Positions 1-18,577 of a stretch of DNA of 20,000 nt are shown piece by piece. The stretch is from the IMG/VR virus record IMGVR_UViG_3300042384_001469, one strand, 5' to 3'. The DNA is from an uncultured virus (IMG/VR IMGVR_UViG_3300042384_001469) (Duplodnaviria; Heunggongvirae; Uroviricota; Caudoviricetes). Within the stretch, counting starts at the first letter, position 1, and each line of letters begins with the position of its first letter. Both the position numbers and the translations under genes were made by a program. The notes below the pieces were generated by a model. It saw nothing but the letters and a program-made list of their open reading frames with translations. It was not told the DNA's origin and did not search any database.

Positions 1-870
1 ATCGATATCTAAACCATTATACAAATTAATTGGTAATTTATTTTTTACTTCTAAAATTTCATTTTTAGCATTTTCAAAAAATGTACCTAATAATCCATCA
101 TAATTTATTTCGAAATAATTTATAATTTTTGGGTACTTATAAACCATTATTGAAAATATTGATTCTTCAGTACCCATATAACCTTGAGATAGAGTTTCAT
201 TTAACAACCCATAATAAAGGGAATTTACTTCCGCAATAGATTCTTTTGTTCCTCCAAAAAACCCTCCTCGTCCAACTAATCTTACATCATCATTCGCCCA
301 ATCATTAATTTTAGGATATGAAAACCCGTGAATTTCATTGTTTGCATCGTATGGAAAACAAATGAAAGAAAATTTAGTAATTTTACTATCTATTTTTTTT
401 AATACATTATCATGTGTAAAATACCCTACGTGAACTGTATTTGTTATACCAGCATCTATCCAAAATAATTTATCAGAATTAAATTTATCTAAAATTTTTG
501 CATCGTGAAGAAGAAACATTTTAGACATCACTAATGGGTTGTAAAATTCTAATTTTGACTGTGTAGACTCAGGTAACCATGAAGATTGATTATACCATTT
601 TTCGTCATTTCTAATACCTTGAATTTTGCCAAAAAACTCATTTTTAAACCACGATAATTCTCTTAATACAAATTGAGTGTTCTCAGATTTTCGGTTTTCC
701 CAAACAAATTTTTCAAGCTCAGAGTCTCCAAATATTATTAAATTTTCCTCAATTGTTAGAAGTTGTTTAAATTTTTCTAAATAGTGTTCTTTAAATGGTC
801 TCGCCCATCCTTCATTTAACCCATCTCTTTTTAAATCCCAAAGCCCTGTAACTAAAGTTATCTTACTCAT
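1..870 (-). CDS. HtrL/YibB (WlaTC)-family glycosyltransferase-like protein; 3' end runs off the window
   Basis: Not in the ORF track. Manual translation from ATG at 870 is open to base 1: MSKITLVTGLWDLKRDGL...YNPLVMSKMFLLHDA...LFWIDAGI...GRGGFFGG...YMGTEESIFS. The TxVTxxxD, WIDAG, GGFFGG and TEE motifs match this family. The start overlaps the stop of 863..1735. Confidence 0.75.
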   Translation of the reverse strand, partial: MSKITLVTGLWDLKRDGLNEGWARPFKEHYLEKFKQLLTIEENLIIFGDSELEKFVWENRKSENTQFVLRELSWFKNEFFGKIQGIRNDEKWYNQSSWLPESTQSKLEFYNPLVMSKMFLLHDAKILDKFNSDKLFWIDAGITNTVHVGYFTHDNVLKKIDSKITKFSFICFPYDANNEIHGFSYPKINDWANDDVRLVGRGGFFGGTKESIAEVNSLYYGLLNETLSQGYMGTEESIFSIMVYKYPKIINYFEINYDGLLGTFFENAKNEILEVKNKLPINLYNGLDID

Positions 871-1735
871 AATCAAAAAATCTAATGTTATTACTTAATT
901 TAGTTTGATTGTACGATGCCGCAAAAAATAAAAAAACAGACCACCAATTACATATTCTAAATATTTTTTCAGATTTAGACATTGCATACATCTCAAATAA
1001 AGTAGATTTAAAAAAATACATTAATTCATCATCACTTAATCCTAAACTTCTTGTTGTACTTAAATCACCTTTATAAACATAATCATTGTAATATAAATTT
1101 TTATAATTACATTGCTTAAGTTCATTTTTTAAAATTTCAAATTGTGTAAACACAAATATTGGTCTATCTTGATTTTTTTCAATAAAATTTTTAATTGACT
1201 GTATTGAATTTGATAATTCTTCAGTTTGGTTATTTAATTCAAAAGGTCTGTAATGTACACAATAAAAATTTTCAGGAAATGATTTTAGTTTTTCTTCGCA
1301 GAATGACACCACTTCGTCAGTTAAAAAACTTAATTTTGGCCACTCATCGTACATTATCCATTTTCTATAATTTTCAATATGAGGAAAATTATTTAAATCT
1401 TCCACTCCCTCAATAATCTCATCAACATAAACATAATATATTTTTGAATTATCAATAACTAATTTAGTTTCATTTCTTTCAGGAAAATTTCCTTCATGAG
1501 GACTAAATCCACTAGTAAAAAATGTAAAATTATCTAACTTGTCTAATTTAAAAATTTTAAAAAAAACATCTCTATTTTCATTATTCATTTTATAAGGATT
1601 TAGGCCAAAATCAACATAAGTTTTAACCTTATATCCCATCTCTTTTAATTTTTCTTGTGTTAGATATACTGAATAGATTGTTGAATACATATCCCCCAAA
1701 CCTGAATTCATACCGGTAGTAATATACGCATTCAT
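863..1735 (-). CDS. Putative GT-B fucosyltransferase-like glycosyltransferase (GT11/GT23/NodZ-like superfamily)
   Basis: N-terminal SGLGD motif, central VHYR motif and C-terminal EMYAMSKS...SVF segment, the motif order seen in GDP-fucose-dependent GT-B enzymes. Lies within a GT operon. Confidence 0.55.
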   Translation of the reverse strand: MNAYITTGMNSGLGDMYSTIYSVYLTQEKLKEMGYKVKTYVDFGLNPYKMNNENRDVFFKIFKLDKLDNFTFFTSGFSPHEGNFPERNETKLVIDNSKIYYVYVDEIIEGVEDLNNFPHIENYRKWIMYDEWPKLSFLTDEVVSFCEEKLKSFPENFYCVHYRPFELNNQTEELSNSIQSIKNFIEKNQDRPIFVFTQFEILKNELKQCNYKNLYYNDYVYKGDLSTTRSLGLSDDELMYFFKSTLFEMYAMSKSEKIFRICNWWSVFLFFAASYNQTKLSNNIRFFDYE

Positions 1736-1739
1736 ATTT

Positions 1740-2660
1740 TTAACTATTTAAAATGTCTATCCAAACCATGTATAATGGTTTAGGTTTACCCCAAGATGGG
1801 TCCCAAAGTTCAAAATGATATTGGTCATGTTCATCAGTTTGGTGAACGTCAAAAATTAAAGGATGAACAATGTCTTTTAATTTATCATAAACTAATTTCA
1901 TTATTGATTCTTCTGTACATAAAAATTCTTTATCAATAATTTTATCACAAAAATTCCAATACTCATTTATATAATTTTTTAACTGTTTAGTATCTCCTCC
2001 AATCATACCTGCAATAGGATAATATGGTCTAATATCATAATCAATTATTCCTTTAGTTTTAAAAACATATCCTGATTGAGGATTTGTTGCGGTTAAATTT
2101 AAAACTTTATTCTCACTAATCTCATTCATTTTTATGAAAAGTTCAGTATTGAATAATTTTGTAAAATCATATTGAGATATTTGATTATTATTCCACACAG
2201 GTACTTCATTTGGATTATGAAATTTTTTATCCCCATATGGAACACAGTACATCCACGGGAATATCCCTGGATGTTGTAATCCTCCGTCAACCCAATAGAC
2301 CCTATCAAAACCTTCTAACTCTTGTTCAAGAACTTGGAATTTTCCCCACATTATTTCAGGTCCTCTACCATCTAAGTCAGTATCAAAATTTTTATCTCTA
2401 ACATCTTTTATTTTTTTATGATACTTCATGTCAGATAATTCCAATATTTTAATTTCAAGATTAGATAAATTATAATCTAATTTAAGTTTTTCAATTTCGG
2501 ATTTATTTTTTTCGTGAGTGTAACAAACAACTGGAAAATTAATACCACGGCAATGACTAATTAAAGACCCATAATATCTATCTTTTCTAACTGAGCTAGC
2601 CCCTTGGAAAGGGTACCCAGCGACATCTAGCCATAAGGCGGTTACTATTTTAGTTTTCAT
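1740..2660 (-). CDS. HtrL/YibB (WlaTC)-family glycosyltransferase-like protein
   Basis: MKTKIVTALW...IMWGKF...YWVDGGL...AGMIGG...TEESIM has the same motif order as the paralogue at 1..870. Confidence 0.65.
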   Translation of the reverse strand: MKTKIVTALWLDVAGYPFQGASSVRKDRYYGSLISHCRGINFPVVCYTHEKNKSEIEKLKLDYNLSNLEIKILELSDMKYHKKIKDVRDKNFDTDLDGRGPEIMWGKFQVLEQELEGFDRVYWVDGGLQHPGIFPWMYCVPYGDKKFHNPNEVPVWNNNQISQYDFTKLFNTELFIKMNEISENKVLNLTATNPQSGYVFKTKGIIDYDIRPYYPIAGMIGGDTKQLKNYINEYWNFCDKIIDKEFLCTEESIMKLVYDKLKDIVHPLIFDVHQTDEHDQYHFELWDPSWGKPKPLYMVWIDILNS

Positions 2661-3400
2661 TAGAATCTAACGTGAAAATCTCCAAGTTTAGTGTAGAACG
2701 AAAAACAATTTTGAATGAAGTGATTTAAAACTCCTTCATATTGGTATTTCATGTCAGCTTCTAATGCTGAAATTCCAATTTCAAAACCATCAGGATAATT
2801 TCTAATGTCATTAGCGATACTATACCATAAAAATTGTTCCCATCTTTGTACAAAAAATTTAAATTTTGAATTGTTCCTAAAAACTAAAAATTGTTCGTTA
2901 ACCACATGAGCCTCATCCCATTTATTATGGTCAAAAACATCGTAATCAAAAAGTTTATCTCTAAAAAAACTTTCATTTGGATTTAACTTGTGAGGACCAA
3001 TTGGTGCGGGTCTTTCAAACAAAAAATCAACATTATTTTGTTCCATATGGTCAAGCATGTTTAATATTTTTTGTTCATCAAATCCATCATGCATTCTCCA
3101 ATCACCATCAGTAAAAATAATATAATCGGGACTATTTCCAGTTTCTTTCTGATGTTCTAGTATATGTTTTAAAGATAAAACTTTTAAATTTAAATTAAAA
3201 TTAAATCCTCCCCTTGAATCATATAATGGTGGGTTAACAATTTTTGTGTGAATTCTGTCACCTTGATTTCTTAATTGTTCATTATTTGTTGTGATAAAAA
3301 ACTCACATTCTTTAGTTTTTTCACGTAACTCTTTATAAAACTCAGGAGTGATAGTTTCATAAGGTTCGTTGATTGCTAGTGTTGTAAAACAGTATCTCAT
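2660..3400 (-). CDS. Putative GT-A fold glycosyltransferase / hypothetical protein
   Basis: N-terminal beta strand FTTLAI, an NLK motif and a DxD motif after a hydrophobic strand (YIIFTDGD). TAATG coupling to the next gene. Confidence 0.5.
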   Translation of the reverse strand: MRYCFTTLAINEPYETITPEFYKELREKTKECEFFITTNNEQLRNQGDRIHTKIVNPPLYDSRGGFNFNLNLKVLSLKHILEHQKETGNSPDYIIFTDGDWRMHDGFDEQKILNMLDHMEQNNVDFLFERPAPIGPHKLNPNESFFRDKLFDYDVFDHNKWDEAHVVNEQFLVFRNNSKFKFFVQRWEQFLWYSIANDIRNYPDGFEIGISALEADMKYQYEGVLNHFIQNCFSFYTKLGDFHVRF

Positions 3401-3402
3401 AT

Positions 3403-4080
3403 TTATAAATTTAAATCATTTAAATATTGCAGGCATTGCTCCCCGCTTGGTTTAGTTGGGTTATCGTATTCATCTAACTGAATTCCAATAAAAAAATTTT
3501 TATTATCTCTACGTATATAGGTCTCAGGTTTGTCATACCCACAGTAAAAAATATTATCATCTGAAATTTTTGACATATATTCATGTAAAATTTCTTGGTC
3601 AGTCCCCCATCTCAAATCAGAACTACTAATAAAACTATTAAAATGGTCCTCAAAATCAGTAATTTTTCGTATTATACCAAATAAACCACTAGGTACTGGA
3701 GAATGCCACGGGTGGTCTCTTATTATAAAATAATCTTTATTAGATTGTACCCATCTATTGATATATTCCACTTCTCGTTCAGAAAGTCTACTATCTAAAT
3801 CTCTAGATATTGTAATCCCGTCATCAAAAAAAGAAATAAATCTCCAAAAAAATGGGTAATCTTTTGGAGGACGATTACCAAATGAAAAAGACGACACGTC
3901 AATCATTTTTGCCCCCATATTTGATAATTTATCAATATATTCGTTACGAATCATTTCAGGATGGTAATAAATCACCGTTTCCCAATCAGGTAATAACTTT
4001 TGATTGATTAAAATATTTTTCTCAGCACCTGTGTAATATTTGTAGTCTAATCCAAATAAACTGTAAGAAATTGATTTCAT
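3403..4080 (-). CDS. Conserved GT-A-like protein (ISYSLFG...WRF...RDLDSR...RDHPWH...DQ type)
   Basis: Motifs ISYSLFG, FWRF, ISRDLDSR (DxD), IIRDHPWH, SGLFG and DQEIL resemble an uncharacterised GT-like family found in glycosylation clusters. Confidence 0.55.
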   Translation of the reverse strand: MKSISYSLFGLDYKYYTGAEKNILINQKLLPDWETVIYYHPEMIRNEYIDKLSNMGAKMIDVSSFSFGNRPPKDYPFFWRFISFFDDGITISRDLDSRLSEREVEYINRWVQSNKDYFIIRDHPWHSPVPSGLFGIIRKITDFEDHFNSFISSSDLRWGTDQEILHEYMSKISDDNIFYCGYDKPETYIRRDNKNFFIGIQLDEYDNPTKPSGEQCLQYLNDLNL

Positions 4081-4081
4081 A

Positions 4082-5071
4082 TTAAATAATTTTACTAAAA
4101 AAATCTAAAATGTAATCCTCATCGAAATAAATTGGTAATTTATTTTCATTAAAAATAGGAGATTCAAAATAAGATTTTAATTTATTATTATCAGAATATA
4201 TTGTATTTAATTCATCGACTAATTCATCAAAATTTTTAAATTTGTGAGCATTGATAAATGACTCAGGATTAAATCCTTCTTCTTCAATGTATTGGTTACC
4301 ATAAAATATTGGAATTGAATTAGAAGCGAATGCATGTATTATTTTTTCTTGAGTTAGATAATCCGTATTAGTATATTGAAAAGCCATGTTGAATGTACAG
4401 TCTGAGAAAAAATTAATTTTATCCCTATAGGTTAACCCGTCAATTTTTCCCATATAATCTTTATTGGAATAGTTATGATATTTGTGAGGATTTAAGGTTT
4501 CTGAATCAGGTATTGTTTGTCGATACGGACCTGAACTTTTAATATAATGATACTTTTCCACAATATTAAAAAATTGGTCTCTATCGGGATTAAAACTTGC
4601 TTGAACTAAACTACAAAAATGTTTTTTTATTAGTTTAATATCTTCGTATTTTTTTGGTTTGGTTAACCAACCAAAATTACTTTCAAATAGACCTCCTTCA
4701 TTATGGAGTACATGCGCGTCTAAAACATATGTTGGGAACCTTAAATATCTGTCATGGTCATGGTGTTCATATCCTAAAGCGTAATAGTTTTCCCCTTTAT
4801 TTAAATGAGATAAGAAATCAGGTCTTGCCTCACCACTTATGAATATTTTTTTTACGTTATCATTGTATTCATGAATACCTTTAACAATTTCGTTAGTGTA
4901 AAAATCTAATTCGTTTTCTCTGTAAAATTGGTTAGTATAAATAACCAAATCAGGATTTTTAGAATCTATTATTACATTATATTTTTTGGATAATATTTCA
5001 TAAAAGAAATTCATCCATGAAAAATTCCCCACACCTGGAAAATTAGCTCTACTTATTCTTATAGTCTTCAT
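4082..5071 (-). CDS. GT10 alpha-1,3/4-fucosyltransferase-like protein with a divergent donor motif
   Basis: NPDLVI, FISGE, YLRFP, FCSLV, SSG, DKINF, QEKIIHAF..NSIPIFYG and FNPESFIN follow the H. pylori FucT/GT10 layout. Confidence 0.85.
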   Translation of the reverse strand: MKTIRISRANFPGVGNFSWMNFFYEILSKKYNVIIDSKNPDLVIYTNQFYRENELDFYTNEIVKGIHEYNDNVKKIFISGEARPDFLSHLNKGENYYALGYEHHDHDRYLRFPTYVLDAHVLHNEGGLFESNFGWLTKPKKYEDIKLIKKHFCSLVQASFNPDRDQFFNIVEKYHYIKSSGPYRQTIPDSETLNPHKYHNYSNKDYMGKIDGLTYRDKINFFSDCTFNMAFQYTNTDYLTQEKIIHAFASNSIPIFYGNQYIEEEGFNPESFINAHKFKNFDELVDELNTIYSDNNKLKSYFESPIFNENKLPIYFDEDYILDFFSKII

Positions 5072-5910
5072 TTTTTATAAATGTCATCAATTTTAATGTG
5101 AACATATCGGTCTTCATCATCAACTTTTAAATTAACATGAGTTCCAAAATTTTTATTGTTTGAATTTGGCCCATCGTTAGTGACCGGCCAATATATTTTA
5201 CTCGCATTTGATAAGAAACATACCCAAAATGAAAATGTACCTTGACAAGCAATTATTTTATTAAATGATGTTAGTTCTTTAAACACATCTAAAATTGAAC
5301 CCTCAATATATTTTGGATTATAAATTTGTAATTTATCTAAAATACTTTTATGGTTATAGACATGGTCAAAAGAAACGTATAAATTTTTAAAATTTTCTTT
5401 TTCCAAAATGTTAAGGTAATATTCATCAGGCAATACAAATCTACCATCGTCTCTACTATTTCTTAACATCAAAACCAAATCGTCATCATTTCTTTTTGGT
5501 AATACTATTTCTGAAAGAAAATTTCTAACTTTTTCTTTGTACGGTTTAATATAATCGTACTTAGAAAAATAGGAGGCGGAAATAATTTTATGTCCCCGAC
5601 AATGGTCTACCATTTTTTCGACAGTATTCAATGTTAATACATCAGTGTCCCCAATTGAGATGACTGGACCTTCAATTGACTCTTTTCCGGTAATGGATTT
5701 AAATGGGAATACTTGCTCAACATATTGACCAACACTTAATTCTTCTCTACGTATTAATGAATTATCAGGAACAATTAAATCATAATTTAATTCATCGGCA
5801 ATAAGTCTACTAACAGAATAAATAAATAATTTATTTCCTAAGTTTTTTCTGTAACTAGAAAAGTGACCTCCTTTCAATCCTTCACAGTAACCATCAAAAA
5901 TTTCAACCAT
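5068..5910 (-). CDS. GT11 alpha-1,2-fucosyltransferase-like protein, divergent
   Basis: NLGNKLFIY (cf. LGNQLFQY), SYFSKY (cf. GYFQ), LPDEYY and IIACQGTFSFW (cf. NSTFSWW). The HxRRGD motif appears as MLRNSRD. ATGA overlap with the next gene. Confidence 0.7.
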   Translation of the reverse strand: MVEIFDGYCEGLKGGHFSSYRKNLGNKLFIYSVSRLIADELNYDLIVPDNSLIRREELSVGQYVEQVFPFKSITGKESIEGPVISIGDTDVLTLNTVEKMVDHCRGHKIISASYFSKYDYIKPYKEKVRNFLSEIVLPKRNDDDLVLMLRNSRDDGRFVLPDEYYLNILEKENFKNLYVSFDHVYNHKSILDKLQIYNPKYIEGSILDVFKELTSFNKIIACQGTFSFWVCFLSNASKIYWPVTNDGPNSNNKNFGTHVNLKVDDEDRYVHIKIDDIYKK

Positions 5911-5912
5911 AA

Positions 5913-7157
5913 TTATAAATTACCTGTTATTCTTTCACCCCATCCTTTTGATTCTGAATATGGCCAAACAACCCAATATGTTGGTTTTTTAGTCATATTA
6001 AATTCTCTCCAAATTTTTATATAACCATCAGGGTCATCCATCATTCTTGCAATTTCAGATTTATCGGCATCTTTTCTAAAAAGTGTTTCATCTGTTTCAT
6101 CATGAAATGCAACAACCCAAAATTCATAATCTTTTTCAGGTACTTGAGAATATTGTAAATCAATACAATGTTTAAAAATCGATGAGAATGAATTCATCCA
6201 TTCTTCTTCAGAATTAAAATTATAAGGATTTGGTGGGTAATGTTTATCTATTGTCCATTGTTGGATTGCTCTTTTGGAAAAAAGTAACCCTGAATATTTT
6301 TCATAGTCTTTTAATGTCCTTTGTTTACCAAATCCATATTTTCCATGGTTCATTGGTTCTTCACCATCCATTCCAAATAGACTTCTATTTTTTTTGTGAC
6401 AATAATCATTTTTACTTACCCAATCTTTATCATCATCCCATTGTTTAGTTCTTCCCTTTCTGGTATATTCGTGCCAAATAAGAATTTTATGTATATGAAA
6501 TAAATCATAACCATGTGTGTACGCTCTAGCTGCAATTGATATCTCCTCACCATGAAAATAAAATTCAGGGTCATGTTGTACTTCTTTGGAAAATTTACCT
6601 AATGTGAAACAATAATGTGCTGAGTAAAATCTTGCAGGAACTGGTTCTGTCATACTTTGCCATCCAGGGATTACTTCAGGTAGGAAAAATACCGCCCCTT
6701 CAGGTATGAATCTATCAAAAACCATTCTCCAAGGTTCCATAACTCTAGAGTTTGGGTCATCGTCAGGGTCAAAAGATGGAACATATCCTGTTAATAAAGG
6801 TTTTTTATGTCCTTTTTTCTGTAACTTTTTAATGATATCAATCATTTCAACATCCCAATTTTCAGCGAATCTCATGTGAGAATCAATTTGTAATGTGTAT
6901 TCTTCTTTTTGATAAAGTTGTTGTATTTGATTTCTAGCCCAACAAGCCCCTTTAGATTCTTCACATGGAATATCTAAAATTCTAAATCTGTCATCACCTC
7001 TATATTCATCCAAATTATCAAATCCATCTTCAATATGAAATTGTCTGGCAATTCCGAATATTAAATTTTCAGGATGTTTGGCATTATCTAATGCGGATTT
7101 AATAGTTGGTATTAATTGTGGGTCTCTATAAGACGCGACTTGGATAAAAATTTTCAT
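5913..7157 (-). CDS. GT60 polypeptide N-acetylglucosaminyltransferase (Skp1 Gnt1-like, Pfam GlcNAc) with a C-terminal extra domain
   Basis: IFIQVASYRD, GACWAR, YTLQIDSHMRF (DSH metal motif), FHGEEISIAARAYTHGYDLF and WHEY are signature motifs of the GT60/GT27 polypeptide HexNAc-transferase clan. Confidence 0.85.
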   Translation of the reverse strand: MKIFIQVASYRDPQLIPTIKSALDNAKHPENLIFGIARQFHIEDGFDNLDEYRGDDRFRILDIPCEESKGACWARNQIQQLYQKEEYTLQIDSHMRFAENWDVEMIDIIKKLQKKGHKKPLLTGYVPSFDPDDDPNSRVMEPWRMVFDRFIPEGAVFFLPEVIPGWQSMTEPVPARFYSAHYCFTLGKFSKEVQHDPEFYFHGEEISIAARAYTHGYDLFHIHKILIWHEYTRKGRTKQWDDDKDWVSKNDYCHKKNRSLFGMDGEEPMNHGKYGFGKQRTLKDYEKYSGLLFSKRAIQQWTIDKHYPPNPYNFNSEEEWMNSFSSIFKHCIDLQYSQVPEKDYEFWVVAFHDETDETLFRKDADKSEIARMMDDPDGYIKIWREFNMTKKPTYWVVWPYSESKGWGERITGNL

Positions 7158-7193
7158 TATTAGTATTTTTAACCAAAAAATATAAAAATAAAA

Positions 7194-8849
7194 TTAGGTG
7201 TAAAGGAATGTTTGGTCTAATTCAATAATATAAAAATAAAAATTATTACCACAACAATTAGGTACTGACAAAGTATTCATGATGTATGGGAAAGTTTCAT
7301 TTTCAACAACCACATATCTTGGTTCTCCTGAATCTTTATAATAGTAAAGATTAAATGTCATTCCTGAAAACTCATCAGATGAAAATATAATATCAGTACC
7401 TGAACTAACTCCAATTATATCATTTATTACACCATCAGAACAACTTGGGCATTTGTAATCAAACAACTCAAAATTACCTTTCAGTATATCAAAATTATGA
7501 ACAACTTCGGGGTATGTTAAAGGTTCGGTATACATTCTAAATTGTGAAATTGCTCCGTCAAATGAACCTGCAAAATTAGGTTCAATAAAAATATTTGTGG
7601 TTAACGCTGATAAGGATGTCCCCGATAATGTTTCGTTTGGCATACATTCAGGGTCTTGTTGATACGTTAATCCAGACAATGAAGTCGGACATTCTCTAAA
7701 AGTTAAACTTTCTCTTAATCCTTGTGTACCTCCACCCCATCCGATATTGAAGGGAACCCCTATTTGTTTTTCTTTTTCAGTATTTAATCCTCTTGGGATT
7801 ACTTCTTCAAATCCGTTAATAACGTAGAATAATCTACCATTTATGTATATCTTCAAAGAACCTAATCTTTGGTCCTTTTCAATCAACCATTCCTCATTTA
7901 GATTAACTACTTCAATTTGGTCTGCAGGAGTCTCTCCTGAATGTGTGTACGGTATTGTAATTAAGCTAACCGCATTTCCTGCCAATGAATTTACATAATA
8001 TAAATTGGTAATAGAATCTAATCCTCCTCTGTATAATAAATCACATTCATCATAATAAGAATTACGTTCCCAAACACAATCGATTAAAAACCAATGTTCT
8101 TTATTTAAATAAGTTTGACTTGATGAACAGTAATCAAAAATAGTTTTACTTGAACAATAATCAGTTATAGTGTAACCTGTTGTGTAAGTAATTCCTGTTG
8201 TCTCACAACTTCCTGTTGTTTCACATCCTCCCGTAAATTTAAGAACTCTAACACAAACTTTAGGATTTTTTGGGTCACCTAAAAGTCTTAGCGATAAAGT
8301 GTTTGACATTGAGTCAAATAACGGGTCTTTATCCGGATTTGCGACTGAGGTTTCAGAACACCCACAATTACACTCAACATTATGTTGACTTGTATAATTT
8401 AATGGTTCATAAACATCTTCTAAACATCTTGAAATTGTTACTCCGGTATCTGAACATGCACATGTTTTTAGACACCCACTCAATACTTCTGTAACTCTTG
8501 TGTACCCTGAATCAGATTCAGGAGACCCCGACGCATGATGATAATATTTATTTTCAGCTCTTGTACCAAAATAAAAAAAAGTATTGTCGTTGTTTGGGTA
8601 AACCTCATTTAAAGTTGTTTGACCCGAAGTATGAAAAAATTGGTCTTCTTGTCTCGCTCTCAACAACATCTCAACAGACCAACCTTTGTTACATCGGTTT
8701 GGAAAAGTTTCATAATCATAACCAAATAATTTAAAAAATCCTTGATAAAATCCACCATACAATTGGTTATAGTATCCAACATTATCGGAAGTTTTACTAA
8801 CTATGTTGTAAACTGTCTCTTTTGTATTTCCTGAAAATCTAATTGCCAT
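7194..8849 (-). CDS. Cys-rich probable virion protein with a LamG/concanavalin-A-like beta-sandwich signature
   Basis: GWSVEMLL, LKIYING, FNIGWGGG and FDGAISQFRMYTEPLT..EVVHNF match the LamG-like pattern. I count 21 Cys, and TGxT/SGxT motifs recur. Confidence 0.55.
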   Translation of the reverse strand: MAIRFSGNTKETVYNIVSKTSDNVGYYNQLYGGFYQGFFKLFGYDYETFPNRCNKGWSVEMLLRARQEDQFFHTSGQTTLNEVYPNNDNTFFYFGTRAENKYYHHASGSPESDSGYTRVTEVLSGCLKTCACSDTGVTISRCLEDVYEPLNYTSQHNVECNCGCSETSVANPDKDPLFDSMSNTLSLRLLGDPKNPKVCVRVLKFTGGCETTGSCETTGITYTTGYTITDYCSSKTIFDYCSSSQTYLNKEHWFLIDCVWERNSYYDECDLLYRGGLDSITNLYYVNSLAGNAVSLITIPYTHSGETPADQIEVVNLNEEWLIEKDQRLGSLKIYINGRLFYVINGFEEVIPRGLNTEKEKQIGVPFNIGWGGGTQGLRESLTFRECPTSLSGLTYQQDPECMPNETLSGTSLSALTTNIFIEPNFAGSFDGAISQFRMYTEPLTYPEVVHNFDILKGNFELFDYKCPSCSDGVINDIIGVSSGTDIIFSSDEFSGMTFNLYYYKDSGEPRYVVVENETFPYIMNTLSVPNCCGNNFYFYIIELDQTFLYT

Positions 8850-8893
8850 TTTTAACTTATATAGTAATAATTTTTAAAACCATTAAAGTAAAT

Positions 8894-9481
8894 TTATGGT
8901 AATTTTTTAACAAAAATTCTAGTCGGTGTTGAGTTTGCGTTAGAAGGGAATGGTGAATTATTACTTGGATTTATTGAAATAGTTATATACGTTGGGGTAG
9001 ATATGAAAAAACAAATAGTACCGTTAATTAATCTGTCACCAGTTGTTTCCACAAATTTTTCATCACTAATTAATGTACCTACAGACATTGCATCAGTTGA
9101 ACCAGTCGCTGAGTTATATTTTACCAAAAGGTCTTGGTTACCAAATGCGTCAAAAAGGTGAACCTGACTTATTAATTCATAATAACCAGACTCTTTTAAA
9201 AAAATTCTTGCACCTGTATTACCAGCCCCGCTTGAGTTAACTAACTCAAAAATATTTGTGTTAGAGTTGAATACTTCGGTATCCCATCTTGGGTAATTTT
9301 CCGCCCCATTTGTTAAGTTAGCATAGTTTGTTGTCCATGAATATGATGCCACTCCAGTATCAATAAAAGTTTGTTTTGTAACTTTATATGTTATAGTTTG
9401 AGCACTGTTGTTCATAATTAAATACGAACCATTAGTATCCCCTGTGTAAAGGGGTAAATTAGAAATTAAAATATCTGCCAT
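8894..9481 (-). CDS. Probable virion fibre/decoration protein with a C1q/TNF-like beta C-terminal domain
   Basis: N-terminus MADILISNLPLYTG resembles phage structural-protein N-termini. ESGYYELISQVHL, the internal beta strands and terminal TRIFVKKL resemble C1q/BclA-like heads. Confidence 0.45.
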   Translation of the reverse strand: MADILISNLPLYTGDTNGSYLIMNNSAQTITYKVTKQTFIDTGVASYSWTTNYANLTNGAENYPRWDTEVFNSNTNIFELVNSSGAGNTGARIFLKESGYYELISQVHLFDAFGNQDLLVKYNSATGSTDAMSVGTLISDEKFVETTGDRLINGTICFFISTPTYITISINPSNNSPFPSNANSTPTRIFVKKLP

Positions 9482-9488
9482 AATTTTT

Positions 9489-9500
9489 TATTTATAAATA
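9489..9500. promoter_or_regulatory. Palindrome TATTTATAAATA, candidate late-promoter element upstream of 8894..9481
   Basis: Perfect 12-bp palindrome containing TATAAATA on both strands, 7 bp from the ATG in a 24-bp intergenic gap. Confidence 0.4.
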
Positions 9501-9505
9501 TATTA

Positions 9506-11065
9506 TTAAGGTTGTTTATTAATTAAATCACCGTTTTGTGCGGCTAACGTTGACCCATCCTGTACCAAAATACGATTATAAACAGGTGTAGGAGTTGGGG
9601 TAGTTGTTGGAGTTTGTGTTGGAGTCGAAGACAGGTCTAATGTTTGTGTAGGTGTAGATGTTTGTGTCTGTGTAGGGGTTTGAGTTGCAGTTTGACTAGG
9701 AGTTTGTGTCTGTGTAGGGGTTTGAGTTGCAGTTTGAGTTGCAGTTTGACTTGGAGTTTGAGTTGGGGTCTGAGTTTGAGTTGCAGTTTGACTTGGAGTT
9801 TGAGTTGGAGTCTGAGTCGGTGTTGGGGTAATTGCCGAATTATATAAAGTAATATTGTCCCCGTTTTGAATACTGATTGTTGAACCATCTTGTGCCAATA
9901 GATGATAAGTTATATAAGTTGTAGGCGTAATACTTGGTGTAATACTAGGTGTTGGTGTCTGTGTAGGTGTTGGTGTCTGTGTAGGAGTCTGTGTTGGTGT
10001 CTCAGTTTGTGTTGGTGTCTGTGTAGGAGTCTGAGTTGAGGTTTGTGTAGGAGTCTGAGTTGAGGTTTGTGTTGGAGTTTGTGTGGGAGTCTGAGTTGAG
10101 GTTTGTGTGGGAGTCTGAGTTGAGGTTTGTGTAGGAGTTTGTGTTGGAGTTTGTGTTGGAGTTTCAGTTTGACTAGGAGTTTGTGTTGGGGTTTGTGTTG
10201 GGGTTTCAGTTTGACTAGGAGTTTGTGTTGGGGTTTGGCTAGGTGTTGGAGTAATTGTTGGGGTAATTAATGGTGTTGGAGTGACAGGGGCGAACGTTTG
10301 ATTTGGGGTTACTTGTATTTGGTACGCACCTCCTGATTCTGATGAGGTCACGCCTGTTATCAATGAAGTCCTATTTAAAGAATCGAAATTTTCATTAATA
10401 GTTACTATTGTTTGCCCGCTAGAGTTACCTAAAGATATTGTTACACCTGTTTGAACTAAAATAGTCCCACCAGTATATCCTAAAACATTTGTAAAATTAA
10501 TTGTGACATCATTAACTAAATTTTCTTCAGATATTAAATTATATATCGCAACAATAGAACCTGGTTCTATAATAGATTCAAGTGTTATAGTAATATCTTC
10601 AGTTGTATATGCAGTAATTGGAATTAATTTAGTTCTTCTATCAAAATGATATCTATCCCATTTTGTAGTTCCACTATATAATCCCATACTAAAATATATT
10701 GTTTCACCTGACATTTCAGGGACTAACCCATTATCGGTACCAACTAATCCAATATCACATAAACTATCACCTGTAAAACAAGATATATTTTCATTATTTG
10801 GGTTATAATAATTTAATGAAACCAAAGTATTTCCGGACATGAAATCCCCATAATTTAAAGTTGGTTGTTGTGAAGAATTAGGGTTATTTAAATCGAAATA
10901 AATTGGTAATCTATTACCATCGTTTATTCCAATTAATTGAGTTGAAAAAACAACTTCTTCATTAAAATCTCTTTCATCAGAAGCTAAGGACATGTCCAAA
11001 TTGTTCCAACTTGGATTTAATTTCCACTTATTAAAGACATATTGATTAATATTCTGTTGACTCAT
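9506..11065 (-). CDS. Probable virion surface protein with two mucin-like Thr/Pro/Gln repeat tracts
   Basis: 519-aa ORF: globular N-terminal ~260 aa, then two TPTQ-type tracts, each followed by an L-x-QDGST-x3-QNGD-x-I motif. Confidence 0.7.
   Translation of the reverse strand: MSQQNINQYVFNKWKLNPSWNNLDMSLASDERDFNEEVVFSTQLIGINDGNRLPIYFDLNNPNSSQQPTLNYGDFMSGNTLVSLNYYNPNNENISCFTGDSLCDIGLVGTDNGLVPEMSGETIYFSMGLYSGTTKWDRYHFDRRTKLIPITAYTTEDITITLESIIEPGSIVAIYNLISEENLVNDVTINFTNVLGYTGGTILVQTGVTISLGNSSGQTIVTINENFDSLNRTSLITGVTSSESGGAYQIQVTPNQTFAPVTPTPLITPTITPTPSQTPTQTPSQTETPTQTPTQTPSQTETPTQTPTQTPTQTSTQTPTQTSTQTPTQTPTQTSTQTPTQTSTQTPTQTPTQTETPTQTPTQTPTPTQTPTPSITPSITPTTYITYHLLAQDGSTISIQNGDNITLYNSAITPTPTQTPTQTPSQTATQTQTPTQTPSQTATQTATQTPTQTQTPSQTATQTPTQTQTSTPTQTLDLSSTPTQTPTTTPTPTPVYNRILVQDGSTLAAQNGDLINKQP
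9584..9829 (-). repeat. Coding tandem repeat block B (TPTQ/TATQ/TQTQ units)
   Basis: The 35-mer tttgtgtctgtgtaggggtttgagttgcagtttga occurs at 9661 and 9703 (period 42), within degenerate 12-bp units. Confidence 0.9.
9917..10288 (-). repeat. Coding tandem repeat block A (TPTQ/TSTQ/TPSQ units)
   Basis: Degenerate 12-bp units with near-exact 24-bp higher-order copies (gtgtaggagtctgagttgaggttt) and 42-bp copies. Confidence 0.9.
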
Positions 11066-11071
11066 CTTTTA

Positions 11072-11097
11072 ATAAATACAATAATCAAAGTATTTAT
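11072..11097. promoter_or_regulatory. Divergent promoter region with inverted repeat ATAAATAC-N10-GTATTTAT
   Basis: Each arm places GTATTTAT on the sense strand just upstream of one of the two divergent ATGs (11065 minus, 11111 plus). Bases 11091-11098 also read TATAAATA on the minus strand. Confidence 0.5.
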
Positions 11098-11110
11098 AGG
11101 TAAAAACATT

Positions 11111-13733: not shown

Positions 13734-13744
13734 ATTCATATGTG

Positions 13745-13773
13745 TTGAAATATTGTAGATTAAGTACTATAAT
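13745..13773 (+). promoter_or_regulatory. Sigma70-type promoter TTGAAA-N17-TATAAT
   Basis: -35 TTGAAA at 13745-13750, 17-bp spacer and perfect -10 TATAAT at 13768-13773, directly after the terminator. Confidence 0.65.
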
Positions 13774-13780
13774 TATTTCT

Positions 13781-14998
13781 ATGAGTAAAAAAATTAATAT
13801 TTTAGTTTTACCTTCAGATAGAAGTGGTGTTGGTAAATTTAGGTCGGTTGACCCACACGTATGTTTACAAAAATTATATCCAAACGAAGTACACGTTGAC
13901 ATTGAATTTGATGTGGATTACAATGACGATAGATTTTGGAAAAAATACGATATTGTTCATTTTCACAGATTAATAGGAACTGATTATGATAAATCATTAG
14001 AATTAATTAATAAACTAAATTCTGATGGGGTGGTTACAATTTGTGACATAGATGACTATTGGTTACCTACCAAAGAACATCCATTACATTCAATCATTGT
14101 TGAAGAAAAAATAAATGAGAGAATTATTGCACAAATAAAGGTGGCGTCACATGTCACTACTACAACCCCAATATTTGCACACGAGGTGTCTAAAATAAAT
14201 AAAAATGTGTCAGTATTACCAAATGCAATTGACCCTAATGAACCTCAATTTAAGGAACCATCAATTGAGTCTGACAGAATTAGAGTTGGGTGGTTAGGGG
14301 GTTCTTCACATTTACATGACCTTAATTTACTTGATGGGATGATAAATAAGTTAGGTTCTTTAAATGATAAACTACAATATGTTTTATGTGGATTTGACAC
14401 TAGAGGGTCAATGACTGAGTATAACAAAGAGACTGGTGAAAAGAAAGTTCGACCAATTAAACCTGAAGAAACAGTATGGGTAAAGTACGAAGAAATATTC
14501 ACAAATAATTATAAAATTATTAGTCCTGAGTATAAATCACATTTAATGAAATTTAAAGATGAACCTTACTTTAATGAATTAAATGAAGGGTACCGAAGAG
14601 TTTGGACATTACCTACAACATCTTACGCCAAAAATTATTCAAAATTTGATATATCATTAGCCCCAATTAAAAACCATATTTTTAATAAAGTTAAATCACA
14701 GTTAAAAGTTATTGAAGCGGGGTTTTACAAAAGAGCGTTAATTGCATCTAATGTTGGACCTTACACTGTTGATTTAAAACACGCTCTTAATCATGGTGAG
14801 TTTGTTGACGGAAACGCTTTATTAATTGAGGAAACTCGTAATCACTCCGATTGGTCAAAAAACATTAAAAAATTAGTCAATAATCCAAATATGATTGTTG
14901 ATTTAGGTGAAAGATTGTATGAAACAGTCTCAAAAAAATACGATTTAAATAACGTAACCAAAGATAGAAAAGAACTTTATTTCAGTTTATTAAAATAA
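13781..14998 (+). CDS. GT-B (GT4-like) glycosyltransferase
   Basis: ATG at 13781 (MSKKINILVL) is preferred to the GTG at 13742. Motifs SGVGKFR, DIDDYW, VLPNAID, RVGWLGG, DISLAP, KSQLKVIEAG and IASNVGPY. Confidence 0.8.
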   Translation: MSKKINILVLPSDRSGVGKFRSVDPHVCLQKLYPNEVHVDIEFDVDYNDDRFWKKYDIVHFHRLIGTDYDKSLELINKLNSDGVVTICDIDDYWLPTKEHPLHSIIVEEKINERIIAQIKVASHVTTTTPIFAHEVSKINKNVSVLPNAIDPNEPQFKEPSIESDRIRVGWLGGSSHLHDLNLLDGMINKLGSLNDKLQYVLCGFDTRGSMTEYNKETGEKKVRPIKPEETVWVKYEEIFTNNYKIISPEYKSHLMKFKDEPYFNELNEGYRRVWTLPTTSYAKNYSKFDISLAPIKNHIFNKVKSQLKVIEAGFYKRALIASNVGPYTVDLKHALNHGEFVDGNALLIEETRNHSDWSKNIKKLVNNPNMIVDLGERLYETVSKKYDLNNVTKDRKELYFSLLK

Positions 14999-15703: not shown

Positions 15704-16299
15704 ATTTAGATATTAACGACGAGGATTTTGATTTATATGAGGAAATGAAAAAAATTCAAGAATCTTTAGATAAAGAATCTAATTTGAATTTATATAAACA
15801 AATTTCGGATGATTATGGTATTGATTTAAAAGACTTTGAAGACAAAATGATAGAGTCTATGAAAAAACTTGACTTACCTTATTCATCGGAAACTGATTTA
15901 GATTTAAAGTATAATTACGTATCCGACAGTGGGTTTGATTTATACTCAACAGAGGAAATTTCAATTGAAGCTTTTGGAAGAGCTTTAATACCTACGGGCA
16001 TTAGATTTGAGATACCTGAAGGTTTTGAAATTCAGGTTAGGTCAAAAAGTGGATTAGCTCTTAAACAAGGGTTAATGGTTCTTAATAGTCCAGGTACTGT
16101 TGATGAGGGGTACACTGGTGAGGTACAAGTAATAGTGTTTAATACAAATAAAGAATCATTTAAAATTACTAAAGGTATGAAAATTGCTCAAGCGGTTTTA
16201 TCCAAATGTTATCCCGGTAGAAATGTTAATTTGGTTAAAGTAAGTAAAGTTGAAAATAAAGACCGTGGTGAAAACGGATTTGGAAGTACAGGAATATGA
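15700..16299 (+). CDS. dut: Trimeric dUTPase with an acidic N-terminal extension
   Basis: All five motifs present: SGFDL, RSKSGLA, GTVDEGYTGE, KIAQAV and RGENGFGSTG. Confidence 0.95.
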   Translation: MNLDINDEDFDLYEEMKKIQESLDKESNLNLYKQISDDYGIDLKDFEDKMIESMKKLDLPYSSETDLDLKYNYVSDSGFDLYSTEEISIEAFGRALIPTGIRFEIPEGFEIQVRSKSGLALKQGLMVLNSPGTVDEGYTGEVQVIVFNTNKESFKITKGMKIAQAVLSKCYPGRNVNLVKVSKVENKDRGENGFGSTGI

Positions 16300-17933
16300 T
16301 AACAATTGGATATAGTACAAGAAAATCAAATCCTGAATTTCAGGAATATTTAAAAAAATCATGTGGTAACCCAAAAATACAGATTATTGAAAAAGTTAAC
16401 AATGGTGAAAAAAATCTTTCAGTTGTTTATAACGAAATATTATCTGAGTCAACTAATGATATTGTAGTATTGTGTCATGATGACATTTATTTTGATACAA
16501 AAAATTGGGGGGAAAAACTTAAAAAAGTTTTTGATAGAAATAATGAGTTTTCAATTTTAGGAGTTGCAGGAACAACAAGTTTACCTATTAGTGGTATGTG
16601 GTGGGAAGATAGGTCTAAAATGTTTGGTATTGTGAATCATGAACATGATGGTAAAAAATGGGAATCAAGGTATTCGGATTCTTTACAAAACAATGTTAAA
16701 GAAGTTGTACTTGTTGACGGTTTGTTTATGTGTTTAAATAAACAAAAAATTAAAGACTCTTTTGATGAATCAGTTGATGGATTCCATTTTTATGATGTCA
16801 ATTTTTGTTTTAAAAATTATTTAAGTGGGTGTAAGATTGGAGTAATTACAAATATTAGAATCACCCATAAGTCAATAGGAATGACAAATGAAAAATGGGA
16901 AGAAAATAGGAAAATTTTTTCTGAAAAGTATAAAAACAACTTACCTTCAAAAATAAAAGTAACCGAAAATGACAAATTAAAAGTTTTAATTGGTTGTTTA
17001 TTTTTTAGAGAATTTACAGGTTCTGAAATGTACGTTTACGAACTATCCAAAAATTTACTAAAAATGAATGTAGATGTTTCTATTGTTGCTTATGAAACTG
17101 TCGGTAGATTATCTGAAATTGCTAAAAAAGAAGGGATTAAAGTTTATAATATTACAGAACCTCCAGGGTTTAAAATGGGGGACGGAATTTGGAGGATGTC
17201 TACACCAAATGGGATAATAACAACTGAAAAAAACAAATATTATAGAATCTCAAATGAAACGTTTGATATTATTCATTACCAACACCAACCTGTTGTAAAT
17301 ACGTTAAATAATTTATATCCCGATATTAAAAAAATATATACTATACATTCTGAAGTCATTTCTTTAGAAAATCCAATAATTAATGAGAGTGTTAAAAAAT
17401 ACATAGCAATTCGACCTGAGATTAAAGAGTGTATTGTTAAAAATTTTAACGTACCCGAAAACCTTGTTGAAGTTATTTACAACCCAATTAATTCTGAAAA
17501 ATTTAATATTAAAAATACAAAAGATTTAGGTTACACTTTATTTGTTGGGACAATTGACGAGATACGAAAACAAACCATTTTTGATTTAATTAAAACCACT
17601 AAAGAAAATAATAAAACATTATATATTGTAGGTAAAAATCAATCAAACTATTTAAATTCAATTTTAAATGAGTCTCATGTAAAATATTTTGACAGTACGA
17701 TTGATGTACAAAAATATGTTAAAGATTGTTCCGAAACTGCTGGTATTTTATTAGGTAGAACTACAATTGAAGGTTGGATGTGCGGTAAAAGTGGTTGGAT
17801 ATACAACATTGATAATTTAGGTAACATAATCGATAAAAAATTACATGAGCCACCTTTAGATGTGGAAAGATTTGATTCATTAAATGTTACTAAAAAAATA
17901 AAACAAAATTATATAGACATAATTAATTTATGA
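16296..17933 (+). CDS. Two-domain glycosyltransferase: N-terminal GT-A (GT2-like) plus C-terminal GT-B (GT4-like)
   Basis: N half: YNE, VVLCHDDI, ILGVAG, VDGLF, FHFYD and H-x-S-x-G. C half: KVLI..TGSEMYVYEL, TIHS, VIYNPI, FVG and TTIEGWMCG. Confidence 0.8.
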   Translation: MITIGYSTRKSNPEFQEYLKKSCGNPKIQIIEKVNNGEKNLSVVYNEILSESTNDIVVLCHDDIYFDTKNWGEKLKKVFDRNNEFSILGVAGTTSLPISGMWWEDRSKMFGIVNHEHDGKKWESRYSDSLQNNVKEVVLVDGLFMCLNKQKIKDSFDESVDGFHFYDVNFCFKNYLSGCKIGVITNIRITHKSIGMTNEKWEENRKIFSEKYKNNLPSKIKVTENDKLKVLIGCLFFREFTGSEMYVYELSKNLLKMNVDVSIVAYETVGRLSEIAKKEGIKVYNITEPPGFKMGDGIWRMSTPNGIITTEKNKYYRISNETFDIIHYQHQPVVNTLNNLYPDIKKIYTIHSEVISLENPIINESVKKYIAIRPEIKECIVKNFNVPENLVEVIYNPINSEKFNIKNTKDLGYTLFVGTIDEIRKQTIFDLIKTTKENNKTLYIVGKNQSNYLNSILNESHVKYFDSTIDVQKYVKDCSETAGILLGRTTIEGWMCGKSGWIYNIDNLGNIIDKKLHEPPLDVERFDSLNVTKKIKQNYIDIINL

Positions 17934-18577
17934 TTTTAAACAATTTTTTTTCCAAATCCTTTTGTATAAATTTAGACAGAAGACAAGACAGATGGACGAC
18001 TATTACTAAAAAATTTAATGATTTTGGAATTGTTGCTGAAAGGTATTCCGCATTTGATGGTAAAACTTTAACATTACCATATCCTCATTCATCTGAATTA
18101 GGGGGTACCATATCTCATTTAAATGTGATTAAAATGGCGAAAGAGTTAAATTTAAAGAACGTTTTAATATACGAAGATGACGTTGAATTTGATTCAAATA
18201 TTTCTGAAAAATTTGAATCAATTATTCCTCAGATTCCTGAAGATTGGGACCTTATATATTTTGGTGGAAACCACCAAGGTCCAATTAAACAAATTTCCGA
18301 AAACATTTTTAAATTGTCTCACACTTATGCATTACAAATGTATGCAGTTAATTCAAAATCATACGACACAATTATAGATTTTTTAGAAGATAAAGTTAAT
18401 AAGGTATTAGATAAAAAAGTATCTTTTAAACCATCAGTAGCTGCCGATTTTTATTTATCTTTATTACAACCAAAATTAAATTGTTATTGTATTAGACCTC
18501 ATTTAACTTGGCAAATTCAAGATTATTCTGACATACAAGAACACATTGTAAATTATGACTATTTGTTAAAAAAATAA
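17930..18577 (+). CDS. GT25 family glycosyltransferase (Lex2/LgtB-like beta-galactosyltransferase family)
   Basis: CINLDRRQDRW, SAFDG, GGTISH, VLIYEDD and DWDLIYFG motifs. Confidence 0.88.
   Translation: MILNNFFSKSFCINLDRRQDRWTTITKKFNDFGIVAERYSAFDGKTLTLPYPHSSELGGTISHLNVIKMAKELNLKNVLIYEDDVEFDSNISEKFESIIPQIPEDWDLIYFGGNHQGPIKQISENIFKLSHTYALQMYAVNSKSYDTIIDFLEDKVNKVLDKKVSFKPSVAADFYLSLLQPKLNCYCIRPHLTWQIQDYSDIQEHIVNYDYLLKK

Follow-up and report, generated by a model that had tools for sequence, protein, structure and literature searches.

A glycosyltransferase island between Thr/Pro-rich proteins

The window considered here is a 20,000-nucleotide stretch (bases 21056-41055) of the 46,613-base IMG/VR virus record IMGVR_UViG_3300042384_001469. 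One arm of it encodes a glycosyltransferase (GT) of family GT60, other enzymes of GT type, and a protein with long threonine- and proline-rich (Thr/Pro) tracts. A first-pass annotation, made from the letters of the window, had proposed that this arm is a mucin-type O-glycosylation system with which a phage decorates its own particle. The record encodes a tail sheath of 1061 amino acids (aa), a tail tube, and a baseplate hub, as well as a family-B DNA polymerase (PolB), a SNF2 helicase, and a superoxide dismutase. Because of these genes, we conclude that the record is a fragment of a jumbo myophage, rather than a cellular locus or part of a giant virus that infects eukaryotes; the idea that it might be a cellular polysaccharide locus can be set aside. 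CheckV rates the record as 13% complete, which implies a whole genome of roughly 350 kb, and its G+C content is 30%. The virus is an uncultured giant phage of freshwater type. The whole window had no megablast match among 50,697 phage records. Over 16.1 kb, the record is 100% identical to another IMG/VR contig (L005), except for one 53-base stretch, so the gene arrangement is supported by two assemblies.

Positions 1-11065 of the window hold eleven minus-strand open reading frames (ORFs), whose neighbors overlap by up to 14 bases or lie up to 44 bases apart, so the co-oriented and tightly packed arm of the annotation is there as described. From upstream to downstream, the ORFs are:

9506..11065, minus strand: 519-aa mosaic Thr/Pro protein (N-terminal domain, small domain, and two (Thr-X)n tracts)
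8894..9481, minus strand: 195-aa protein of which only residues 1-39 are seen again, in one other locus
7194..8849, minus strand: 551-aa Cys-rich protein, the "body" that is fused behind a 154-residue N-terminal domain in close relatives
5913..7157, minus strand: GT60 enzyme, a relative of the PF11397 polypeptide N-acetylhexosamine (HexNAc) transferases (Pfam, PHROG)
5068..5910, minus strand: GT11-like (fucosyltransferase-type) protein of the variable cassette (hhalign, 99.9% to the contig's own Pfam-GT11 gene)
4082..5071, minus strand: GT10 fucosyltransferase-family protein of the variable cassette (PF00852, E = 8.6e-11)
3403..4080, minus strand: 225-aa putative GT-A enzyme (invariant R-D-x-D-S-R; marginal profile match to chlorovirus A064R)
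2660..3400, minus strand: 246-aa protein, a lead for a GT (invariant D-x-D; weak Atlas lead to GT8)
1740..2660, minus strand: 306-aa HtrL_YibB-like paralogue (hhalign, 97.8%)
863..1735, minus strand: 290-aa protein with an Atlas lead to the NodZ/FUT8/O-FucT fucosyltransferase superfamily
1..870, minus strand: N-terminal 290 residues of HtrL558, a 558-aa HtrL_YibB + GT2-like protein (Pfam) that continues beyond the window start

The system extends past both ends of this range. Beyond the window, the arm continues with the rest of the 558-aa protein, a 122-aa ORF, a second tract protein of 581 aa, and PolB.

The GT60 enzyme

The call of a GT60 enzyme was correct: the ORF matches PF11397, which we take to be the Pfam counterpart of CAZy family GT60, at 218.9 bits (E = 1.7e-64; the cut-off is 21), with residues 55-292 aligned to profile positions 96-349 of 352. 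It also matches phrog_24687 (E = 2.4e-171). Asp92-Ser93-His94 is invariant in 20/20 aligned phage relatives, and so is His229; the D-x-H of the GT27/GT60 type is presumably the metal-binding motif. The C-terminal region of about 120 residues (after about residue 293) lies outside the Pfam model, yet it is conserved. Against PDB, neither sequence nor profile gave a significant match; the profile returned chance-level rows for fatty-acid-binding proteins (E of at least 0.09).

No 19-residue window in any arm protein exceeds 1.3 on the Kyte-Doolittle scale, we detected no signal peptide or membrane segment in the phage tract and arm proteins, and the arm enzymes are predicted to be soluble, without membrane segments. 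In protists (Trypanosoma cruzi and Dictyostelium), GT60 enzymes make N-acetylglucosamine (GlcNAc)-alpha-O-Thr on mucin-like proteins (PMC9472816, PMC8724618).

Two proteins with alternating Thr tracts

The 519-aa protein has two tracts of alternating (Thr-X)n, at residues 246-383 (window 9917-10330) and 413-494 (window 9584-9829). Together these comprise 220 residues, of which 95 are Thr, 44 are Pro, and 42 are Gln; in the first tract, Thr or Ser occupies every second position in 87%. The tracts are encoded by nested tandem DNA arrays at 9642-9829 and 9934-10264. The repeat protein of the annotation is therefore present, but it is a mosaic. Its residues 1-154 are the N-terminal domain (N-domain) of a conserved first-gene family, and residues 158-232 are a small domain common to other Thr/Pro proteins. 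In the closest relative (L006/L007, whose GT60 is 91% identical), residues 1-154 head the 551-aa body instead: a 706-aa protein (L006:7844-9961) corresponds to residues 1-154 of the 519-aa protein plus residues 4-551 of the 551-aa protein. The DNA that codes for the tracts and for the 195-aa ORF has no counterpart in L006 and is inserted between the two halves of a single gene. Stand-alone forms of the body (about 550-585 aa) are common among 1447 database relatives of the 551-aa protein. A short Q-D-G-S...Q-N-G-D module follows each tract of the 519-aa protein (residues about 389-405 and 499-515; window 9830-9916 and 9506-9580). Among 3322 ORFs of the collected loci, it is found in 1 other protein, at the C terminus of a tract protein.

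The annotation had described the two genes that follow as structural-looking. For the 551-aa protein, which was modelled via its 706-aa relative (mean predicted local distance difference test, or pLDDT, of 47.8, with core blocks at 70-90), the modelled core matches ConA/LamG/CBM40-type lectin domains (Z of 10-12, 137-159 residues aligned, root-mean-square deviation of 2.7-3.8). This low-confidence model suggests a ConA/LamG/CBM40-like lectin core; the shared N-domain (residues 1-207 of the 706-aa relative) was left unpredicted, and a sequence search of PDB with the 551-aa protein found no match. The 195-aa protein has no usable Pfam match (E up to 10) and no PDB sequence match, and we assign it to no family.

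The 581-aa protein, which lies just beyond the window, has a tract of about 195 residues (89 Thr and 40 Pro) with Thr/Ser alternation in 91%. Its model (mean pLDDT of 57.0) has a beta-sandwich at residues 1-120, a disordered tract, and, as the C-terminal part, a six-bladed propeller (pLDDT of 70-87) with Kelch and YWTD matches (Foldseek E of about 1e-6). The 122-aa ORF is a paralogue of the first 137 residues of the 581-aa protein. A search with this type of N-domain found 204 database proteins, and in those that we sampled, tracts and exchangeable heads lie behind the N-domain. The heads among 30 of these proteins that were scanned include DUF285 (3), Fib_succ_major (1), Peptidase_C1 (1), and Methyltransf_14 (1).

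In a search of BFVD with the 581-aa model, the best match to the N-domain was an unnamed phage protein, so a virion location gains no support from it. Both tract proteins match phrog_15511; because the alignments fall in the repeat region, we treated these as low-complexity matches. In a related jumbo phage, the tail sheath (1116 aa, Phage_sheath_1C; L118:1159-4506, which is G005 81159-84506) carries a Thr/Pro tract of 56 residues.

The genes are linked across a clade of phages

To define tract ORFs, we required that at least 40 residues be covered by 30-residue windows with at least 60% Ser/Thr plus Pro. We collected 77 IMG/VR loci with GT60 relatives, which form 40 clusters at 90% GT60 identity. 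Their common frame is a member of the first-gene family and/or one or more tract proteins, then GT60, variable enzymes, an HtrL558 homologue, an N-domain protein (often fused to a tract), and PolB. HtrL558 homologues are present in 34/40 representatives (32 downstream of GT60 and 2 upstream), with 0-9 genes between.

The annotation had suggested testing whether GT60 and Thr/Pro proteins co-occur and are syntenic across phages; in this clade, they do and are. A tract ORF lies within 10 kb of GT60, on either side, in 35/40 representatives, and it is the immediate co-oriented upstream gene in 15/40. Tract ORFs account for 68/581 genes in the loci, as compared to 24/800 genes in four large contigs. 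In 32/39 representatives, a tract ORF lies within two genes of the island that runs from GT60 to HtrL. The expected share is 39% from the density of tract ORFs in the loci (binomial p = 5e-8, which overstates the independence of the loci because they are related by descent) or 11% from the genome background. Tract proteins that are distant from GT60 include a tail sheath, an RCC1 propeller, a Fib_succ_major protein, and a SprB-repeat protein.

GT60 relatives are also present in four isolated jumbo phages of Xanthomonas/Stenotrophomonas (XacN1, Xoo-sp13, RAS14, and CM1), at 46-48% identity. In the three that we examined for the operon (XacN1, Xoo-sp13, and RAS14), GT60 is followed by a carbamoyltransferase, 1-2 ORFs, and a full-length HtrL558 homologue (38-41% identity). 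These phages resemble the uncultured phage in having GT60 and, in those three, an HtrL558 homologue in the same operon, but their cassette has the carbamoyltransferase instead of fucosyltransferase-type enzymes. Convergent to the GT60 block in these three is a giant protein (3313 aa in XacN1) that lies behind baseplate wedge genes and has one Pro/Ser/Thr tract. XacN1 virions contain at least two Schiff-positive glycoprotein bands, and its authors suggest that the phage's two glycosyltransferases make them (PMC5852040, including the legend of supplementary Fig. S4).

A conserved partner and a variable cassette

The annotation had seven further GT-like ORFs alongside GT60. Four of these are well supported (GT10, GT11-like, HtrL_YibB-like, and HtrL+GT2-like), and three are mere leads. 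The 558-aa protein matches HtrL_YibB (PF09612; E = 9.5e-16, 58.6 bits, cut-off of 24.1) over residues 3-252, and residues 296-392 have a weak match to GT2 (E = 0.0077, below the cut-off).

The 225-, 246-, and 290-aa ORFs are leads to glycosyltransferases only. For the 225-aa ORF, there is a single marginal profile match (E = 9.6e-4) to chlorovirus A064R, which glycosylates capsid protein. The Atlas lead from the 246-aa ORF to GT8 is carried by 20% of one cluster, and the profile of this ORF found nothing in PDB. The 290-aa ORF has Atlas neighbors with NodZ/FUT8/O-FucT families (scores of 0.95-0.96). When we aligned these three families with the contig's known enzyme families, hhalign probabilities were all below 5%. 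No usable Pfam match turned up, at E up to 10, for the N-domains or for the ORFs of 225, 246, 290, 306, and 195 aa, and NCBIfam had no match for the ten minus-arm proteins that were submitted.

The cassette is wholly different in L006, despite flanks with 81-88% DNA identity and a GT60 that is so similar; the tract insertion is missing there as well. The array is strain-variable, and the conserved partner of GT60 is the HtrL+GT2-like protein rather than all of the array that the annotation had described.

Two side observations concern the cassette. In L006, it includes a methyltransferase. The 53-base stretch that is missing from L005 lies within the GT10 gene (window 4133-4185; contig 25188-25240), so the GT10 ORF has 311 aa in L005 and 329 aa here; the two versions may reflect variation in the population or a difference between assemblies.

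GT60 and tract proteins in bacterial records

We scanned one genome per prokaryote species and found 528 stretches that encode GT60 relatives, of which 77 loci were kept. Four bacterial-record loci were dropped because the ORF filter had lost the GT60 gene, and the rest formed 53 clusters at 70% identity. An HtrL558 homologue lies beside GT60 in 18/53 clusters, and a tract ORF lies beside GT60 or HtrL in 17/53. Tract ORFs are 20/202 of the genes within two genes of GT60 or HtrL, versus 9/515 of those farther away (odds ratio 6.2, Fisher p = 3.7e-6). In a FastTree phylogeny of 98 GT60 sequences, the tract-positive rows are scattered, with at least 15 label changes forced by well-supported branches; positive branches include phage, Gemmatimonadaceae, Bacteroidota, Acidobacteriota/Deltaproteobacteria, and Verrucomicrobia.

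Beyond GT60 and HtrL558, the bacterial loci share with the contig just single matches to three cassette proteins. Because there are so few of these matches, the bacterial loci cannot be regarded as copies of the phage, but some short bacterial contigs of low G+C may be phage sequence that was misbinned. Tract proteins in the bacterial loci are small and differ in kind: an export or recognition element is followed by a long Thr/Pro/Ser tract. By eye, 10/16 have an Arg-Arg N terminus and a hydrophobic stretch. All four from Gemmatimonadaceae (4/4) have a PqqD domain, and all three from Saprospiraceae/Lewinellaceae (3/3) have a C-terminal sorting tail of the type IX secretion system (T9SS), one of them above the Pfam cut-off. 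Loci with small tract proteins are L129, L132, L133, L139, L144, L147, L148, L160, L161, L167-L169, L175, and L198. Judging by these genes, the bacterial set of GT60, HtrL, and tract protein looks like an undescribed three-gene glycoprotein module.

The divergent arm and other genes of the contig

The other strand of the window encodes further glycosyltransferases:

13742..14998, plus strand: glycosyltransferase phrog_7162, kept in relatives
16296..17933, plus strand: fusion of GT2 (Glyco_tranf_2_5) and GT4
17930..18577, plus strand: GT25-family glycosyltransferase
18580..19395, plus strand: second GT10-family enzyme
19388..19999, plus strand: GT11-family enzyme that continues beyond the window end

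Downstream of the GT11 gene are a Maf/PseD-like protein (PF01973), a methyltransferase, a PseF-like cytidine monophosphate (CMP)-sugar cytidylyltransferase (E = 3.3e-29), a class-III aminotransferase, and a short-chain dehydrogenase/reductase. The genes from Maf/PseD-like to aminotransferase lie at L004:248-3786 (contig 41248-44786). From this set of genes, we suspect a branch for nonulosonic or ulosonic acids. Flagellins are O-glycosylated on Ser/Thr by Maf enzymes (bioRxiv 10.1101/2020.06.03.131540). At the end of the divergent arm in L006 (L006:100-1086, minus strand) is a UDP-GlcNAc 2-epimerase (PF02350, E = 2e-64).

Between the two arms, a Lys-rich ORF (window 11042-11971, plus strand) diverges from the 519-aa gene and is a conserved divergent neighbor in relatives. 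It has 286 aa from the ATG at window 11111 or 309 aa from a TTG start; in the latter case, it would overlap with the beginning of the 519-aa gene. The divergent arm also encodes a WYL-domain protein of 127 aa (PF13280, E = 8.2e-6; window 12735-13118, plus strand), which is kept in relatives. Elsewhere on the contig, the superoxide dismutase gene, of the Fe/Mn type (L002:13035-13745, plus strand), adjoins the SNF2 helicase. A tRNA scan found none. The numbers of promoter-like sites (74 versus 71.7 expected) and terminator-like sites (1 versus 5.0 expected) in positions 1-12000 were uninformative about operon structure.

How the phage might glycosylate its tract proteins

Because GT60 and a swappable block of enzymes sit between two Thr/Pro proteins, the phage probably coats such proteins with sugars. 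More specifically, and from the genes alone, we lean towards a system in the cytoplasm that O-glycosylates fibre or display proteins of the phage itself. The soluble GT60 would put the first HexNAc on threonines of the alternating (Thr-X)n tracts, as its family membership and its gene linkage suggest; the acceptors would be the 519-aa protein, the 581-aa protein, and probably other proteins with tracts that the genome encodes elsewhere. The next, constant sugars would be added by the conserved bifunctional HtrL+GT2-like protein, given that its pairing with GT60 is conserved. The strain-variable cassette would then finish the chain, given that cassettes are swapped. In this phage, the finishing enzymes would be mostly of fucosyltransferase type (GT11-like, GT10, and the NodZ/FUT8-like lead), along with the GT-A-like proteins; there may also be a contribution from the divergent arm, with its enzymes and activated-sugar genes.

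The tract proteins would have an N-terminal beta-sandwich anchor, a disordered stalk, and a distal head of the beta-propeller or lectin type. Given this build, the particle most likely displays them as fibres that are stiffened by glycans and shielded from proteases. The build and the tract in the tail sheath of a relative are only suggestive of this location. The annotation's central claim, that the phage glycosylates its own particle, is partly supported by the phage contig, the GT60, its linkage to tract proteins in phages and in bacterial records, the soluble enzymes, the absence of the two polysaccharide-export families tested from five large relatives, and the glycoprotein bands of XacN1, while the place on the virion, the acceptor, and the sugar are what we infer.

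We favor a soluble, sequential O-glycosylation of proteins because the arm proteins lack membrane segments, because no export family that we tested for was found, and because GT60 is directed at polypeptides. Among five large relatives, the initiating phosphoglycosyl transferase (PF02397) and the Wzy_C polymerase/ligase were each found in 0/5 (flippases and WecA-type enzymes were not searched for), and neither is in the 46.6-kb contig. As positive controls, the same search found matches in 9/14 reference genomes.

Alternatively, the island could edit the glycans of the host envelope (the core of lipopolysaccharide (LPS) or lipooligosaccharide (LOS), capsule, or host glycoproteins), for example to block superinfection or to change a receptor, and the Thr/Pro proteins would be mere neighbors through inherited gene order. 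The matches to GT25, GT2+GT4, GT10, GT11, and PseF-like, Maf/PseD-like, and WaaZ-like proteins are typical of LPS, LOS, or capsule, htrL is named from a bacterial gene family (PF09612), and Thr/Pro tracts are common as linkers elsewhere in these genomes. Furthermore, LOS synthesis on the cytoplasmic face works without its own flippase or polymerase. We retain host editing because LOS-type synthesis is soluble too and because the divergent arm resembles LPS and capsule machinery, but we consider it unlikely. The GT60 family is directed at polypeptides, the island is bracketed by tract proteins in 32/39 phage representatives, and the same pairing is seen in unrelated bacterial contexts, where the tract proteins are not homologous; the two families tested, PF02397 and Wzy/ligase, were not found in the five large relatives. 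A role in glycosylating the phage's DNA, as hypermodified bases that protect against restriction, seems very improbable to us. Modifying DNA is a frequent role of phage glycosyltransferases (PMC12619734), the divergent arm includes a dUTPase and an exonuclease, and 2/5 large relatives have a gene of the thymidylate-synthase family. That family is needed for glycosylation via hydroxymethyl-pyrimidines, however, and it is missing from the other 3/5, including one that is estimated to be complete; and the bacterial three-gene modules have no DNA context. To our knowledge, GT60, GT10, and GT11 are not DNA-modifying families, and we know of no DNA glycan that would need about fifteen enzymes and a nonulosonate-type pathway.

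The tracts might also be glycosylated on proteins that are not components of the particle, such as released adhesins or enzymes, or decoys. The location of the arm among replication genes would fit with this, as would the lack of a match between any tract protein and a known virion protein, the protease and lectin-type domains among the heads, and the bacterial counterparts, which are secreted (T9SS tails and RR-type N termini). But the phage proteins have neither signal peptides nor membrane segments, fibres attached to the particle are presumably often built in this way, with a common N-domain and interchangeable heads, the tail sheath of a relative carries a tract, and virions of XacN1 contain glycoproteins (PMC5852040). 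We judge released or decoy proteins to be quite improbable.

Several observations count against glycosylation of the phage's own fibre or display proteins. The arm is flanked by replication genes (PolB, exonuclease, and dUTPase) and is not within the tail module. The tract proteins have no match to virion proteins in Pfam, PHROGs, PDB sequence searches, or BFVD, their N-domains have no annotated match, and the 706-aa and 581-aa models are of low overall confidence, with the mean pLDDT values given above. Soluble enzymes are likewise used in LOS-type glycan editing. At the threshold used, no tract ORF lies beside the enzymes in 7/39 phage representatives or in 36/53 bacterial clusters, and the phage p-values are affected by shared descent. 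Of the tract ORFs in the four large contigs, 17/24 are more than 10 kb from GT60 (and 7/24 are within 10 kb), and one contig (G004) has no tract ORF near GT60. In the XacN1-type phages, the sole nearby tract has about 50 residues and belongs to the 3313-aa protein, about 9 kb away. Also, the stained bands of XacN1 were not assigned to particular proteins (PMC5852040).

A broader reading, which we hold only tentatively, is that the bacterial modules and the phage islands are forms of one mobile three-part "prokaryotic mucin" system that is common to many bacterial phyla and jumbo phages. Its acceptor would be a (Thr-X)n protein, a soluble GT60 would initiate the chain, and a bifunctional HtrL+GT2 protein would extend it. 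In bacteria, glycosylation of the acceptors in the cytoplasm would precede their export, which their RR-type N termini and T9SS tails suggest. In phages, the core between fibre-like proteins would have gained the hypervariable cassette, so that close relatives wear different glycan coats, and the differences between cassettes would amount to serotype-like variation of the particle surface.

Comparison with known glycosylation systems

The phage enzyme shares PF11397 and the D-x-H motif with the protist GT60 enzymes (TcOGNT1/2 of T. cruzi, which act on mucins, the pp-alpha-GlcNAcTs of Dictyostelium, and Gnt1, which acts on hydroxyproline in Skp1). Thr-rich and Pro-rich repeats are acceptors in protists, and here the candidate acceptors adjoin the gene. 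Another likeness is the lack of the ricin-type lectin domain of animal GT27 (PMC8724618). In contrast to the protist enzymes, this one is encoded by a phage, is predicted to be soluble without a Golgi anchor, has an extra C-terminal region of about 120 residues, and is paired with an HtrL+GT2-like protein.

Mycobacteriophage glycosyltransferases modify the phages' own structural proteins (PMC12619734). The likeness is that phage-encoded glycosyltransferases act on the phage's own proteins, which for the jumbo phage is proposed from gene content. The differences are that the jumbo phage offers modular fibre-like proteins as candidates, with long (Thr-X)n stalks as acceptors, and that it has a putative GT60 initiator and a much larger, swappable set of enzymes. 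In the mycobacteriophages, according to what Freeman et al. reportedly found in 2023, virion glycosylation forms a glycan shield on the particle, and the short C-terminal tails of capsid and tail-tube subunits are modified.

Soluble virus-encoded glycosyltransferases and sugar-nucleotide genes are known from chlorovirus PBCV-1 (capsid protein Vp54 and A064R) and from the fibrils of mimivirus; the glycans of PBCV-1 are N-linked. More generally, giant viruses encode glycosyltransferases that decorate particle proteins independently of the host machinery (PMC5852040). The jumbo phage is similar in having its own putatively soluble glycosyltransferases and sugar genes, and the 225-aa cassette protein marginally matches A064R. 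Unlike the phage, giant viruses have eukaryotic hosts, and we found no description of a pairing of GT60 with tandem Thr/Pro acceptors in them.

The loci for serine-rich repeat adhesins in Gram-positive bacteria combine a repeat acceptor, a cytoplasmic O-HexNAc initiator (GtfA/GtfB), and strain-variable extenders, and modification precedes assembly or export. On paper, the phage arm follows the same locus logic. However, the adhesin loci use GT4-family GtfA/B instead of GT60 and HtrL, and the acceptor is Ser-rich rather than Thr-X; also, we saw no accessory Sec genes in the 46.6-kb contig. In the literature that we covered, with subscription journals outside its scope, we found no description, from phages or from bacteria, of GT60 with tandem Thr-X acceptors, an HtrL-type partner, and a hypervariable cassette.

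Implications

Very few examples of glycosylated phage particles are known. If our proposal is correct, then a mucin-type initiating family that was thought to be eukaryotic acts in phages and bacteria, on dedicated Thr-rich stalks, and abundant freshwater jumbo phages vary the glycans of their particles by means of a swappable cassette. This would bear on how large phages adhere to surfaces and hosts, how they resist proteases and recognition by grazers or hosts, and how the particle surface diversifies. The bacterial modules hint at an undescribed route of protein glycosylation that is coupled to export.

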